This document shows positions 27,470 to 33,151 of a stretch of DNA of 37,190 nucleotides, in pieces. Origin of the DNA: a virus; IMG/VR virus record IMGVR_UViG_3300031994_000263, positions 1 through 37,190 of that record. One strand, written 5' to 3'. Every line of letters starts with the position of its first letter. The stretch's first letter is position 1. The position numbers were made by a program, and so were the translations under genes. Below the pieces are notes generated by a model that saw nothing but the letters and a program-made list of their open reading frames with translations, did not search any database and was not told the DNA's origin.

Positions 27470-29941
27470 ATGGGAAACGATTTTAATCAAAATTGGAATG
27501 AACCTAATCAGATGAACCGGCAAAGAGATTTGGTTCTCGCGGCAAATGAATTTGCATTCGTTATGGCAAAGACAAATGGAACCATTAAAACTTATACAGG
27601 TCCCATTACAATGACAATTTCCGCCCAGGAATCTCTTGTTGTCTTTAATCCTAAAACTAAGAAATTTGAAGAAACTCAGGATTTTGAAAAAGCAAAACAG
27701 CTTTTTGTATCTGCTCCTGAGGGTTGGTATGTTACTCTTAAGAACCCCGCCAAGGATAGTTCTCATCCTGAGCCCGCAAAGGCAGTAAATAGTGCGGAGC
27801 TTGATATTGGACGCAAAATTAATATTGCGGGCCCCTGCTCCTTCTCTCTTTTCCCTGGTCAGATGACTAGAGTTATTCGCGGTCACCGTCTCCGTTCTAA
27901 TCAGTATCTCCTTGCAAGGGTCTACGATGCAGACGCCGCCAATAACAACTCTTCTACTGTCATTGATGCAGAAGGTAAAGAAATTACCAAATCTCAGCAA
28001 TACTTTGTTGGTCAGCTCTTGGTAATCAAGGGAACGGAAGTCTCTTTCTACATCCCGCCCACTGGTATTGAAGTTATTGCAGAAAATGAAAACGGCACAG
28101 AAACTTATGTAAGAGAAGCTGTTACTCTTGAACGTCTTGAATATGCAATCCTTAAGGATGAAGATGGTGAAAAGAGATATATTCATGGCCCCTCTGTCGT
28201 ATTCCCTAAGCCTACTGAAACATTTGTTCAAACTCCTAAGGGCGGAGTAATCTTTAGAGCACTTGAACTTTCTCCTATTAGTGGTATTTATGTTAAAGTA
28301 ATTGCTGAATATGATGAAACTCAGAATGGCAAGAAAGTTCATCATCCTATTGGTGAAGAACTCTTTATCACTGGAAAGGATCAGATGATCTATTATCCGC
28401 GTCCTGAACACGCAATCATTGAGTATGATGGTAAGTATATGCACCATGCAATTGCCATTCCTGAGGGTGAAGGTCGCTATATTCTTAATAGACTGACTGG
28501 CAAGATCACAACTATTAAAGGCCCCACAATGTATCTCCCTGATCCTAGAATTGAAGTTGTAGTTAAAAGAAAGCTTTCTGCCTCTGAATGTGATTTAATG
28601 TATCCTAACAACTCAGAAGTTCTTGCTTATAATGAAGCTCTAACTGAAAAGGCAACAGAGAAGGCGGCGAAGAAAGGAATTGCTTCTCTTTCCGCGCTTG
28701 ATAACCTTCTTAATACAACTTATGCAACAAACAATCAGGAAGACACCCTTGCAATCTTTGAAGCTAATGCAAATATTGCTCGTGGAGTAAGTTATACTAA
28801 GCCTAGAACTATTACTCTTGATACTAAGTATGATGGTGTGGTTTCTATTGATGTTTGGACTGGATATGCAATTAATGTTGTTTCTAAGTCTGGTAAGAGA
28901 GAAGTCGTAGTCGGTCCCGCCACACGTCTTCTTGACTATGATGAAACTGTTGAAGCCATTAATGAAGCTTCTAACAAAACCGCTTTCTTGAAAATTAAAA
29001 ATAATTGCATTTATGATCTTGTATCTGCGCAAACCGCTGATTTTGCAACTGTACAGATTGCACTTAACTATTATATCAACTTCCTTCCTGAATATAAAGA
29101 TAAATGGTTCTCTATTAATAATTATGCGCAGTATCTTTCCAATAGCATGAGATCTATTATTAAGGATGAAGTCAAAAAGTATAATATTCAAGACTTTTAT
29201 GCTAAAGAAATTGACATTATTAAGAACGTAATTCTTAATAAAAATACAGAGCTGGCGGAAGGCGCTTCTAACCGCAGAATCTTTACAGAAAATGGTATTG
29301 AAATTTATGATGCTGAAATTCTTGGAGTGACTATTGATAAAAACATTGCAAAAATGCTAACTGATCATCAGAATGAAATCATTCAGAAGTCTATTGAGCT
29401 TTCTGATGCTCAGGCTCAACTTAAGACTCTCGACGCTCTTGCAGAAGTCCAGAATAAGCAAGAGAAGATTGAAAGCGACAAAACTCTATTTGCTATGGAG
29501 CTTAATCAGAAGAGAGTTGAAGAAGAACTCAAAGAAAAGGAACTTATTGCCGCACAAGAACGAGCTGCTAAACTTGCTGAAACTCAGGCAACAAAGGAAA
29601 TGCAGGAACTTCTTAATGATATTCAGGCGGCAGAACTTGCAAGAGCTAAAAAGGCTGAAGATGCCAAACTTGAAAGAGAAAGAGAAAGAGCAATTATCGA
29701 AAAGACAAAACAGGAAGCATATGCAGCAACTGTTGAAAAAATTATGAACTCTATTAGTCCTAATTTGATTGCCGCTATTCAGTCTCAGTCTAATGCAGAG
29801 CTTCTGACTGAAGGTATGAAGAGCATGAGTCCTTATGCGCTTGCTTCTGGTGAAACCGTTCCTGAAGTTGTTAATAAGCTTCTTAGAGGAACAACTCTTG
29901 AGGAAGTTATTAATAAGTCTAATGTAAATATAAACTTTTAA
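27470..29941 (+). CDS. Major vault protein (MVP)-like protein of 823 aa. It has several vault-repeat-like units, an SPFH-like shoulder region and a long C-terminal coiled-coil resembling the cap helix. It contains no TAG.
   Basis: Repeated G..L.I.G....YIP...IEV units are visible: GQLLVIKGTEVSFYIPPTGIEVI, GEELFITGKDQMIYYPRPEHAIIE and TGKITTIKGPTMYLPDPRIEVVV. These match the MVP repeat pattern ([21 protein letters not shown]). The N-terminal KTYTGPITMTI...LVVFNP matches MVP EVGPKTYIRQDNERVLFAP. The C-terminal helix ELNQKRVEEELKEKELIAAQERAAKLAETQA matches the MVP cap helix. This was recognised from memory and no search was run. Confidence 0.55.
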   Translation: MGNDFNQNWNEPNQMNRQRDLVLAANEFAFVMAKTNGTIKTYTGPITMTISAQESLVVFNPKTKKFEETQDFEKAKQLFVSAPEGWYVTLKNPAKDSSHPEPAKAVNSAELDIGRKINIAGPCSFSLFPGQMTRVIRGHRLRSNQYLLARVYDADAANNNSSTVIDAEGKEITKSQQYFVGQLLVIKGTEVSFYIPPTGIEVIAENENGTETYVREAVTLERLEYAILKDEDGEKRYIHGPSVVFPKPTETFVQTPKGGVIFRALELSPISGIYVKVIAEYDETQNGKKVHHPIGEELFITGKDQMIYYPRPEHAIIEYDGKYMHHAIAIPEGEGRYILNRLTGKITTIKGPTMYLPDPRIEVVVKRKLSASECDLMYPNNSEVLAYNEALTEKATEKAAKKGIASLSALDNLLNTTYATNNQEDTLAIFEANANIARGVSYTKPRTITLDTKYDGVVSIDVWTGYAINVVSKSGKREVVVGPATRLLDYDETVEAINEASNKTAFLKIKNNCIYDLVSAQTADFATVQIALNYYINFLPEYKDKWFSINNYAQYLSNSMRSIIKDEVKKYNIQDFYAKEIDIIKNVILNKNTELAEGASNRRIFTENGIEIYDAEILGVTIDKNIAKMLTDHQNEIIQKSIELSDAQAQLKTLDALAEVQNKQEKIESDKTLFAMELNQKRVEEELKEKELIAAQERAAKLAETQATKEMQELLNDIQAAELARAKKAEDAKLERERERAIIEKTKQEAYAATVEKIMNSISPNLIAAIQSQSNAELLTEGMKSMSPYALASGETVPEVVNKLLRGTTLEEVINKSNVNINF

Positions 29942-29961
29942 TTAATAATCATTAACACAAT

Positions 29962-29995
29962 AACAAGAGGAAGAAATCTTCCTCTTGTTTTTTTC
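29962..29995 (+). terminator. Rho-independent terminator: the stem aacaagaggaaga / tcttcctcttgtt followed by TTTTTTT.
   Basis: A 13-bp perfect inverted repeat. Its T-tract doubles as the -35 (TTGTTT) of the next promoter. Confidence 0.65.
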
Positions 29996-30012
29996 TAAAA
30001 ATTATTATATAA
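29985..30012 (+). promoter_or_regulatory. Early promoter with -35 TTGTTT (29985-29990), a 16-nt spacer and -10 TATAAT (30007-30012), within the conserved motif tataatatatatagaaaa.
   Basis: The same terminator, promoter and RBS cassette is repeated at 31751-31831. Confidence 0.45.
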
Positions 30013-30042
30013 TATATATAGAAAAGATAAAGGAGAAAATAT

Positions 30043-31803: not shown

Positions 31804-31831
31804 TATATATAGAAAAATAAAGGAGATTAAC

Positions 31832-32092
31832 ATGAGACTTTATTTTGTAAGAGCCAATGGCGAAAGAAAACATTTAAGTCAGGTTTTTGATAATCGTGAA
31901 ACTAATCTCATTATTAAAAATTTTCTTGATGAGCATAATTTTAAATCATATTATACTAGAATGTGGTATAAAGAAAAAGAACATGAACTTTGGTTTGATG
32001 TAGGATCTCATACAGAATTTTTTGTAGTGACTGAAGTCGATGCTGAATCTGAATTTTATAAAAGTTTCTTTAAGGAGACTAATAAAAAATGA
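31832..32092 (+). CDS. Hypothetical 86-aa protein with no TAG. It stops at TGA, which overlaps the pnk start codon (ATGA).
   Basis: Intact ORF with the RBS aaaggag. It lies inside the RNA-repair cassette. Confidence 0.45.
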   Translation: MRLYFVRANGERKHLSQVFDNRETNLIIKNFLDEHNFKSYYTRMWYKEKEHELWFDVGSHTEFFVVTEVDAESEFYKSFFKETNKK

Positions 32093-32616
32093 ATAAAGTA
32101 TATATTATGATGGGCCTACCTGGCGCCGGTAAATCAACCTTTTTAAAAAAATATACAAGTTCTTTATCTGATAAAATAGTTTCTCGTGATGAAATCCGTT
32201 TTTCTCTTTTAAAAGAAGGAGAAGATTATTTTTCTCATGAAGAAGAAGTTAAAAAAATCCTTTGGAAAACTATTAACGATGCTTTAATAGATGGTTATAA
32301 TGTGTTTATAGACCAAACTTCTTTAAATAAAGCTTCAAGAAAACTTCTATTAGATCATATTCGTAAAAACATTGATATTAATGTTATTTTTGTTGATACT
32401 CCTTGTTTTAATTGTATTCAAAATAATAATACACGAGTTGGAACTAAGGCTTTTGTTCCAACAGGTGTCATTAGAAGAATGAATCACCAGCTTGAGCCTC
32501 CTACCTACGATGAAGGTTTTAAGAATATTTATACATATAATATTTATACTGATGAAATAATTAGACTTCCTGAAGAAGGAATTATAGCTTGGCAAAAAGA
32601 ATTAAGGGGGAATTAA
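32089..32616 (+). CDS. pnk: Polynucleotide 5'-kinase of 175 aa, resembling the kinase domain of T4 Pnk. It contains no TAG.
   Basis: Walker A GLPGAGKST is present. VSRDEIR supplies the catalytic Asp, as in T4 NRDDYR. NNTRVGTKAFVPTGVIRRM aligns with T4 Pnk NSKRGTKAVPIDVLRSM. Confidence 0.65.
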   Translation: MNKVYIMMGLPGAGKSTFLKKYTSSLSDKIVSRDEIRFSLLKEGEDYFSHEEEVKKILWKTINDALIDGYNVFIDQTSLNKASRKLLLDHIRKNIDINVIFVDTPCFNCIQNNNTRVGTKAFVPTGVIRRMNHQLEPPTYDEGFKNIYTYNIYTDEIIRLPEEGIIAWQKELRGN

Positions 32617-32617
32617 T

Positions 32618-33151
32618 ATGGATTCTAATATTTGGTTTATCTCTGATACTCATTTTAATCATGATAAAGATTTCATTTGGGAAGCTCGCGGTTTCCAGTC
32701 AGTCCAAGAAATGAATGAAGCTATTATTGAAAGATGGAACTCGTGTATTAAGCCCGATGATATTGTTTATCATCTTGGAGATGTTATTCTTGGAGAACTG
32801 GAGCCAGGTCTTGAAATTCTTAAATCTTTAAATGGACATATTAGACTTTCAATTGGAAATCATGATACAGAAAGCAGACTTACCGCATTTAAGAATCTAT
32901 TTGAAGATATTCAAATGGGGTATAGAATTAAAACGAAACACGGCTGTCTAATGCTATCTCATTATCCGCAACTCACTAATAATACCGATCATTTTTATAC
33001 CTACTCAATTCATGGACATACACATAGTCCAAATCCATTTTGTGAATTTCCACTCATGTATAATGTAAACTGCGAAGCTCATAACTGTAATCCAGTTGCT
33101 CTTGAAGATTTGCTTTATGATCTTAAAAACCACAATCAAGGACAAGATTAA
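32618..33151 (+). CDS. Calcineurin-like metallophosphoesterase of 177 aa, a candidate 2',3'-cyclic phosphodiesterase or 3'-phosphatase partner of Pnk and Rnl. It contains no TAG.
   Basis: The motifs SDTHFNH, HLGDV and GNHD are present, as in the lambda-phosphatase and Pnkp phosphatase family. Confidence 0.6.
   Translation: MDSNIWFISDTHFNHDKDFIWEARGFQSVQEMNEAIIERWNSCIKPDDIVYHLGDVILGELEPGLEILKSLNGHIRLSIGNHDTESRLTAFKNLFEDIQMGYRIKTKHGCLMLSHYPQLTNNTDHFYTYSIHGHTHSPNPFCEFPLMYNVNCEAHNCNPVALEDLLYDLKNHNQGQD

Follow-up and report, generated by a model that had tools for sequence, protein, structure and literature searches.

A phage family that appears to read UAG as glutamate keeps the codon out of genes behind host-type promoters

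Reassigned stop codons are known from several groups of gut phages. In the crAss-like, Lak, Garnet, Amethyst, Jade, Sapphire and Topaz phages TAG is read as glutamine and in the Agate phages TGA is read as tryptophan, and these were the only changes reported where the code of the phage differs from that of its host (Borges et al., bioRxiv 10.1101/2021.08.26.457843). The same study found the lysis genes to be the most TAG-biased families and a homing endonuclease within an early gene to be preferentially recoded, and proposed a role for recoding in coordinating the expression of late and lysis genes. Translation table 15 (TAG = Gln) has been the assumption of tools and surveys since then. We analysed positions 1 to 37,190 of the virus record IMGVR_UViG_3300031994_000263 from IMG/VR (hereafter the window, 37,190 nt), in which genes without in-frame TAG lie next to virion and lysis genes that contain it. 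A preliminary description made from the sequence had interpreted this arrangement under table 15 as a recoding-based timing switch. The division of the genes proved real. The amino acid assigned to the codon appears to be a different one.

When TAG was read as a sense codon, with TAA and TGA as the sole stops, the window consisted of 30 long, tightly packed genes (gene-call cut-off, 60 codons), and the longest open reading frame, of 839 codons with TAG as a stop, extended to 2905 codons. The standard code broke up the central part of the window into short open reading frames. Opening TAG restored the tape measure, tail, endolysin and RuvC genes, so that the window has the in-frame stops that mark a recoded phage. 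The features of the TAG-free region and its surroundings are as follows, where GAR denotes GAA or GAG.

27411..27442, + strand: sigma-70-like promoter P1 (TTGATT-17-TATAAT, TATAATATA motif), 36 nt before the vault-like gene
27470..29941, + strand: vault-like gene (MVP_shoulder/SPFH), 823 codons; 0 TAG against 80 GAR, 24 CAG against 9 CAA
29962..29989, + strand: intrinsic terminator T1, 12 bp stem, -17.3 kcal/mol, U-run
30008..30021, + strand: -10 motif of promoter P2, TATAATATATATAG, 35 nt before denV
30043..30486, + strand: denV-type pyrimidine dimer glycosylase (Pfam PF03013, Pyr_excise, E=8e-16); 0 TAG
30501..31745, + strand: RNA ligase (family search); 0 TAG against 34 GAR
31750..31779, + strand: intrinsic terminator T2, -18.7 kcal/mol
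31799..31812, + strand: -10 motif of promoter P3, GTATAATATATATAG, 33 nt before hyp86
31832..33151, + strand: hyp86 (31832-32092), AAA_33 polynucleotide-kinase-like ATPase (32089-32616) and metallophosphoesterase (32618-33151); 0 TAG in all three
33174..33210, + strand: weaker, AT-rich terminator hairpin, -12.6 kcal/mol, U7 run
33220..35389, + strand: lysis cassette of a two-transmembrane protein (6 TAG), a holin-like protein (1 TAG) and a GH25-CHAP-SH3 endolysin (4 TAG)
35397..35489, + strand: terminator T3 (-23.8 kcal/mol), then promoter P4 (TTGACA-17-TATACT, TATAATATA motif)
35510..36022, + strand: RNase H (family search); 0 TAG
36022..36717, + strand: GIY-YIG homing endonuclease, inside an otherwise TAG-free unit; 3 TAG
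from 36790, + strand: promoter P5 (TTGCTA-17-TATAAT, TATAATATA motif), ahead of the topoisomerase II fragment
36847 to the window end at 37190, + strand: N-terminal fragment of topoisomerase II; 0 TAG

Over the 1822 codons of the six genes at 27470-33151 (hereafter the block), TAG never occurred in frame, and it was likewise absent from RNase H and the topoisomerase fragment, whereas the remaining genes, including those for virion, lysis, resolvase and homing endonuclease functions, contained 146. The preliminary description was thus right about which genes lack TAG, and its gene names were borne out by family searches (MVP_shoulder/SPFH, Pyr_excise, RNA ligase, AAA_33, phosphoesterase, RNase H and topoisomerase II). 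TAG as a trinucleotide is not depleted in the block, where it occurs 44 times out of frame. The difference between the block and the rest was significant relative to glutamine codons (CAA or CAG; 0/60 vs 146/579, Fisher p=1.3e-7) and relative to glutamate codons (0/158 vs 146/636, Fisher p=3e-16). A uniform TAG frequency, named beforehand as the result that would speak against a split, was not found (G-test among genes, p=1e-10), and none of 20000 permutations gave a TAG-free run as long as the observed one. Most of the small TAG-free genes are not significant one by one (P of zero TAG 0.04-0.12 for denV, hyp86, the kinase, the phosphoesterase, RNase H and the topoisomerase). The most TAG-dense gene was that of the RuvC-like resolvase, with 7 of its 15 Glu-type codons. 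Exceptions occurred in both directions, namely the three TAGs of the GIY-YIG endonuclease in the 'early' region and the scarcity of TAG in a six-gene module at 3881-7021 (3/50 Glu-type codons) and in a GDSL-esterase gene (2/34).

To compare the window with its relatives, 44 related IMG/VR loci were retrieved with the vault-like protein, the tail protein and the RNA ligase, and further ENA loci were obtained via RuvC homologues. TAG was masked as X, and orthologues were aligned at the DNA level. In the tail-protein family, alignment columns of the type EEEEEXXEXEXEE were found, and 8 of the 14 window TAGs fell in Glu-dominated columns and none in Gln columns. A leave-one-out decoding over 33 families assigned all 61 sense codons correctly and gave Glu for 69% and Gln for 8% of the TAGs in conserved columns (64% and 7% when more loci were added). 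The summed log-odds for the 125 TAG codons of the window were +44.8 nats for Glu and -56.1 nats for Gln, and those for 1183 TAG codons from all sources were +739 and -586 nats, respectively. Glutamate was the sole residue with a positive score at TAG, and the controls (GAA, GAG, CAA, CAG, AAA and GAT) decoded as expected. Even single TAGs in small genes fell in conserved Glu columns. Furthermore, the residue most often opposite TAG in the standard-code Enterococcus phage EF1 was glutamate.

The RuvC-like resolvase gave a further view of such columns. Its homologues were compared as DNA (loci L056-L063) because the database proteins (P0001-P0120) had been translated with TAG as Q; the public protein P0001, for example, has Q at all seven window TAG sites. 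In five of the seven TAG columns the non-TAG codons were all Glu codons, except for one GAT and one AGC, each in a different column, and the other two columns mixed CAA, GAA and AAR. TAG codon 62 aligned to the catalytic Glu66 of E. coli RuvC in a profile comparison with 1hjr that was weak (E=0.55) but agreed with the motif. The RuvC E66Q variant is reportedly catalytically inactive. A search of the PDB with the RuvC-like protein alone gave nothing usable, and alignments of the endolysin to PDB entries were weakly informative, with E at one of three TAG sites. A near-invariant 'MRDQ' in the translated RuvC-like proteins has TAG at its 'Q' in nine of ten sequences and GAA in one.

These comparisons contradict the table 15 reading of the preliminary description and make the proposed comparison of TAG, CAG and CAA frequencies beside the point, as TAG aligns with glutamate. 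We judge it fairly likely that the phage family uses a code in which UAG means glutamate and UAA and UGA are stops, by way of a phage-specific tRNA(CUA) with a Glu-type body, and that this code has not been described before for a bacterial virus. We found no report of amber-to-Glu decoding in a phage in the full-text literature searched, the coverage of which was incomplete, so that an earlier report is possible. We regard this apparent reading of UAG, which rests on comparative sequence analysis, as the most interesting outcome of this work.

A tRNA search and an Rfam scan of the window gave no match. A tRNA(CUA) was first found in one relative, and a pattern of its D-arm and anticodon loop then located tRNA(CUA) in nine related contigs, always within a large tRNA array 5-10 kb upstream of the tail module. 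Six of the nine scored 60-66 bits against Rfam, which confirmed the register. Only tRNAs were matched in these Rfam searches, and no ribozyme was found beside the suppressor. Three variants of the tRNA(CUA) were present, and between them the acceptor and anticodon stems change compensatorily while the D and T arms are invariant. A crude motif scan of the fetched loci for genes of release factors or class I aminoacyl-tRNA synthetases found none. In four relatives, those in which the motif was seen, the suppressor lies just downstream of a TATAAT-type promoter like those of the TAG-free genes, which suggests that it is expressed early. This does not fit the idea of the preliminary description that the suppressor is supplied in mid-infection. 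One relative also carries a tRNA with the anticodon UUA (51 bits in Rfam; L016 2395-2469 = L047 2898-2972), whose D-arm resembles that of a Firmicute tRNA-Glu; it could be a second suppressor, for UAA or UAG, or a decaying copy of a tRNA-Glu.

The bacterial amidotransferase GatCAB selects tRNA-Gln through the U1-A72 pair and a short D-loop, and many Firmicutes lack glutaminyl-tRNA synthetase (GlnRS). The tRNA(CUA) lacks these Gln-type features. Its pair 1-72 is C-G, G-C or G.U, as opposed to U-A in the phage tRNA-Gln, and the pair is not U-A in the phage tRNA-Glu either. Its D-arm is 17 nt long, as in the phage tRNA-Glu and unlike the 16-nt D-arm of the phage tRNA-Gln. If such a tRNA were charged by the glutamyl-tRNA synthetase (GluRS) of the host and disregarded by GatCAB, glutamate would be delivered at UAG. 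The mean identity of the tRNA(CUA) was 51% to phage tRNA-Glu, 47% to tRNA-Trp and 43% to tRNA-Gln, and nearest-neighbour typing was ambiguous, with 66% identity both to a tRNA-Glu and to a tRNA-Trp.

The TAG-free genes are also marked by their promoters. Five start codons in the window, and no others, are preceded at 24-44 nt by the TATAATATA -10 motif. They belong to the vault-like gene, denV, hyp86, RNase H and the topoisomerase, so that five of five first genes are TAG-free. Recognisable -35 hexamers were present at three of the five. Strong hairpin terminators follow the vault-like gene, the RNA ligase and the endolysin, and the block consists of three transcription units. The cassettes of terminator and promoter noticed earlier thus exist, but they bound units and not single genes. 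The proposed association of TAG with promoter class was likewise confirmed at the five first genes, whereas the gene-level link in the relatives was modest (p=0.018) because a promoter stands only at the first gene of each unit. The lysis cassette has the weak terminator ahead of it, the gap between the phosphoesterase and the cassette contains no promoter motif, and the ribosome-binding site of its first gene lies directly 3' of the 33174-33210 hairpin. This gene, which encodes the two-transmembrane protein, has TAG at codons 5, 8, 13, 16, 22 and 130, i.e., five in the first 22 codons.

The split is conserved over dozens of orthologues. The TAG fraction per orthologue family was bimodal, either 0.000 or 0.11-0.23, the latter in the tail, baseplate, tape measure and endolysin families. 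There was no TAG in the RNA ligase family (656 GAR; 24 non-identical cluster members, including the window), in the kinase family (261 GAR; 19 such members), in the topoisomerase II subunits (0/418 in ten orthologues and 0/357), or in seven homologues of denV (a cluster of eight non-identical members with the window). The orthologues are 42-77% identical, with abundant synonymous turnover: conserved Gln columns toggled between CAA and CAG in 9/9 cases in the RNA ligase and 12/15 in the topoisomerase, and TAG appeared in none of them. This turnover indicates that there was ample time for TAG to appear and that it was selected against. In the relatives, a Ro-like RNA-binding protein (phrog_850, E=5e-122; L013 4896-6413 and orthologues) is encoded directly after the tRNA array, and it was also TAG-free (0/315 across 11 cluster members). 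Together with the RNA ligase, kinase and phosphoesterase, it suggests a heavy investment in tRNA maintenance.

Comparison with the phages of Borges et al. showed that the locus shares their main layout, with replication-type genes compatible with the standard code and structural and lysis genes carrying the recoded stop. A recoded homing endonuclease of the early region is common to both (GIY-YIG here, an intron endonuclease there). Those phages encode a suppressor tRNA and infect a standard-code host, and here the tRNA(CUA) was seen in the relatives. However, TAG reads as Glu here, and the tRNA(CUA) is not Gln-like. The early/late split is the published model, in which the timing role is a hypothesis. 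As a timing switch, the proposal made in the preliminary description matches that model in its layout and is not a new idea; the locus adds a further well-resolved case with unusually clean promoter and terminator landmarks.

Another similar phage is phAss-1, the proposed Phassvirus (OQ749652; PMC10607447), a gut phage of ~136 kb with a predicted Clostridia host, a large tRNA set including tRNA(CUA), and TAG in its tape measure, portal, TerL and fibre genes, which its authors assign to Gln. It is only a distant relative. Its tail protein is 32% identical to that of the window over 99% of the length, and the 19 phAss-1 TAGs that could be aligned to the family at this identity were uninformative, so that its code is neither confirmed nor challenged here. 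A megablast search of 25 kb against GenBank phages gave no match, and tblastn with the RNA ligase gave only matches of <30% identity in unrelated phages. UAG is known to mean Glu in ciliate nuclear codes, those of peritrichs, Oligohymenophorea sp. PL0344 and phyllopharyngeans (PMC10553269, PMC11687900). As opposed to the phage case, these are eukaryotic reassignments of a whole genome, with no codon-free gene class, no difference between host and parasite codes and no common descent. The gene content of the TAG-free region is reminiscent of phage T4. The early repair set of T4 comprises Pnk, Rnl, DenV, RNase H and topoisomerase II. The same enzymes are clustered behind host-type promoters in the window, but T4 uses the standard code and is not known to have a counterpart of the vault-like gene.

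The following account, taken as a whole, is the one that we consider probable, for a window that would be a portion of a ~130 kb phage. The phage's own tRNA(CUA) would make UAG a sense codon for glutamate. UAG would be avoided, whether as a sense or as a stop codon, in the genes that are driven by host-type sigma-70 promoters (the vault-like gene, denV, the ligase, kinase and phosphoesterase of RNA repair, RNase H and topoisomerase II), and these genes would yield an identical protein with or without the suppressor. In the virion, lysis, resolvase and homing-endonuclease genes, ~23% of the Glu codons are UAG, so that their full-length products would depend on the suppressor. A suppressor-free state would exist early in infection, and dependence on the tRNA would delay or safeguard the synthesis of late and lysis proteins. 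We infer further that the GluRS of the host charges the tRNA(CUA) and that GatCAB does not convert the product. A timing role of TAG is plausible. For an expression of the TAG-free genes ahead of the TAG-bearing ones, the sole indirect sign is the sigma-70-like promoters at the TAG-free units.

Several observations weigh against this account. No tRNA(CUA) was found in the window itself or in a contig that reaches 1.2 kb further left. The variable loop of the tRNA(CUA) has 5 nt as opposed to 4 nt in the phage tRNA-Glu, and in view of this difference and the identity of only 51%, the tRNA by itself does not prove a Glu identity. Across 185,579 bacterial and archaeal genomes, no cellular tRNA was found to match the body of the tRNA(CUA). 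The log-odds per TAG codon (0.36 nats) were below those of GAA (1.07), and ~8% of the TAGs fall in Gln columns. As the promoters of the suppressor are of the early type, any delay must come from accumulation of the tRNA and not from its late supply. Within an 'early' unit, the homing endonuclease nevertheless has TAG, and hyp93, the first gene of the late operon, has no TAG, although it has only four Glu codons.

It is possible, albeit in our view doubtful, that the pattern is a passive footprint of the order of expression. TAG would then drift into genes translated while the tRNA is abundant and be purged from genes needed earlier; it would have no regulatory role, and transcription would set late timing. 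This passive constraint predicts the same distribution of TAG as a timing role. It agrees with the early-type promoters found ahead of the suppressor and of the TAG-free genes alike, with TAG positions that are less conserved than GAA positions, with large and seemingly irregular differences in TAG density between late genes, and with the absence of TAG from the only homologue found of the first lysis gene. However, it does not readily account for the lysis cassette, where a weak terminator, the missing promoter motif and five TAGs in the first 22 codons coincide, or for the several resolvase members in which TAG stands at a catalytic Glu, and lysis genes were also the most TAG-biased families in the phages of Borges et al.

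An ordinary table 15 phage whose early genes compensate for missing TAG with CAG is improbable. The CAG richness of the early genes, which the preliminary description had linked to TAG, was found in aggregate (CAG:CAA 39:21 in the block vs 85:348 elsewhere, p=2.5e-12), public pipelines translate the TAG of the family as Q, and phAss-1 was published as TAG->Gln. However, the CAG excess stems from only two genes, the vault-like gene (24:9) and the RNA ligase (10:4), whereas CAA is preferred in the kinase (1:3), phosphoesterase (1:5), RNase H (0:6) and topoisomerase (1:3). The excess is paralleled by AAG (fraction 0.44 vs 0.22), and GAG is not enriched (0.13 vs 0.11), so that it represents a codon-usage difference of two genes and no counterpart of TAG use. 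In addition, Glu columns hold TAG 8-9 times as often as Gln columns, the log-odds for Gln are negative, the RuvC columns contain GAA or GAG and not CAA or CAG, and neither the U1-A72 pair nor the short D-arm of the phage tRNA-Gln is present in the tRNA(CUA). The extreme preference of the vault-like gene for CAG is kept in its relatives (five orthologues; 113 CAG, 9 CAA and 0 TAG).

Still less likely is a recent gain of the TAG-free genes from standard-code sources, in which TAG has not yet accumulated. The vault-like gene and the RNA ligase do have a GC content of 0.37-0.38 compared with ~0.32 and a distinct codon usage, homologues of the RNA ligase are common to more distant phages, and the TAGs of the GDSL protein are restricted to its N-terminal 118 codons. 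However, genes of low GC content are TAG-free as well (kinase 0.29, hyp86 0.27, RNase H 0.24), both gene classes occur on the same contigs, and 24 RNA ligase, 19 kinase and 10 topoisomerase members have remained TAG-free at 42-77% identity, with synonymous turnover in the Gln columns that counts against recent acquisition. An artefact of chimeric assembly or mis-called open reading frames, for which no supporting evidence was found, is hardly credible. Genes with and without TAG are interspersed (lysis cassette, RNase H, endonuclease, topoisomerase), independent contigs show the same layout, even a lone TAG in a small gene falls in a conserved Glu column, and the co-occurrence of the tail gene and the RNA ligase on several related contigs indicates that the window is not chimeric.

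If UAG indeed means glutamate in this family, the rule from earlier surveys, which limits capture by phages to the charging systems for Gln and Trp, would be too narrow. Annotation under table 15 would place Gln for Glu across the family, catalytic residues included, and proteomic searches of these phages would miss or misread peptides. Hundreds of related sequences occur in rumen and gut metagenomes, some of them on contigs of ~130-140 kb, and several of the related contigs analysed here were 118-144 kb long. In a host without GlnRS, charging by GluRS combined with escape from GatCAB would be a plausible route and a new form of codon capture by a parasite. The family would then provide a system for studying how a suppressor tRNA gains its identity where the host makes Gln-tRNA by transamidating Glu-tRNA.

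The remainder of the window contains the following features.

2..3714, + strand: baseplate-like protein (cut by the window edge, at least 7 TAG) and tail protein (14 TAG)
3721..7021, + strand: TTGACA-17-TATACT promoter and conserved six-gene TAG-poor module (genes at 3881-7021; 3 TAG in 50 Glu-type codons)
7114..9330, + strand: GDSL-esterase tail-fibre-like protein; 2 TAG, both within the first 118 codons, in 34 Glu-type codons
10577..27238, - strand: late operon with the RuvC-like resolvase, two large tail proteins, the tape measure protein and small genes (hyp93, 0 TAG; hyp61, 1; hyp80, 1; hyp101, 2)
10885-11373, - strand: RuvC-like resolvase; 7 TAG of 15 Glu-type codons
11751-13541, - strand: 596-codon protein; 8 TAG, half of its 16 Glu-type codons
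13553-17908, - strand: tail protein, 1451 codons; 29 TAG
18019-26727, - strand: tape measure protein, 2902 codons; 56 TAG (phrog_4211, E=4e-56)

The 2902-codon gene had been described as a giant fiber with roughly one TAG per 20 codons. Its match to phrog_4211 rules out a fibre, PF10145 was found in the tape measure of relatives, and the density is one TAG per 52 codons. A second candidate 'TAG-free block' at 3881-6006 was rejected, as it was significant relative to Gln codons but not relative to Glu codons, because the proteins encoded there are Glu-poor. The module to which it belongs (3881-7021) lies between tail genes, reaches a GC content of 0.44 and encodes a Gln/Asn-rich protein, an Asn/Gly/Cys-rich membrane protein (phrog_16490), a phrog_20016 protein and an M78-like metalloprotease.

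The combination of GH25, CHAP and SH3 domains in the endolysin, an SLH domain in one relative, and the nearest cultured relatives of the tail protein, which are Enterococcus phages (29% identity), points to a Gram-positive host. The vault-like protein (27470-29941), which heads the TAG-free block with its own promoter and terminator, has a long C-terminal coiled coil. The gene of the GIY-YIG endonuclease overlaps the stop codon of RNase H and lies between RNase H and the topoisomerase; its full-length product would require the suppressor despite the early-type unit. The 596-codon protein (11751-13541) is rich in Ser, Thr, Asn and Tyr and carries three tandem copies of a C-terminal motif, YIYDGS(S/N)W(R/K)K, with AIP after copies 1 and 2. 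In the 1451-codon tail protein, nearly all of the 29 TAGs lie within the first ~900 codons, and the uneven distribution in this gene and in the GDSL gene may reflect exchanged C-terminal modules. The nominally intergenic 500 nt at 9331-9833 include short reading frames that contain TAG codons, as well as a C-terminal peptide of fibre-like type, and may be a small or decayed gene below the 60-codon cut-off. Finally, position 34 is U or G in almost all of the tRNAs listed for the arrays in the relatives (L046-L055), apart from tRNA-Met (CAU), tRNA-Trp (CCA), tRNA-Leu (CAA), tRNA-Arg (ACG) and the CUA suppressor. This fits the preference of the late genes for A-ending codons, and the CAG- and AAG-rich early genes may lean more on host tRNAs.

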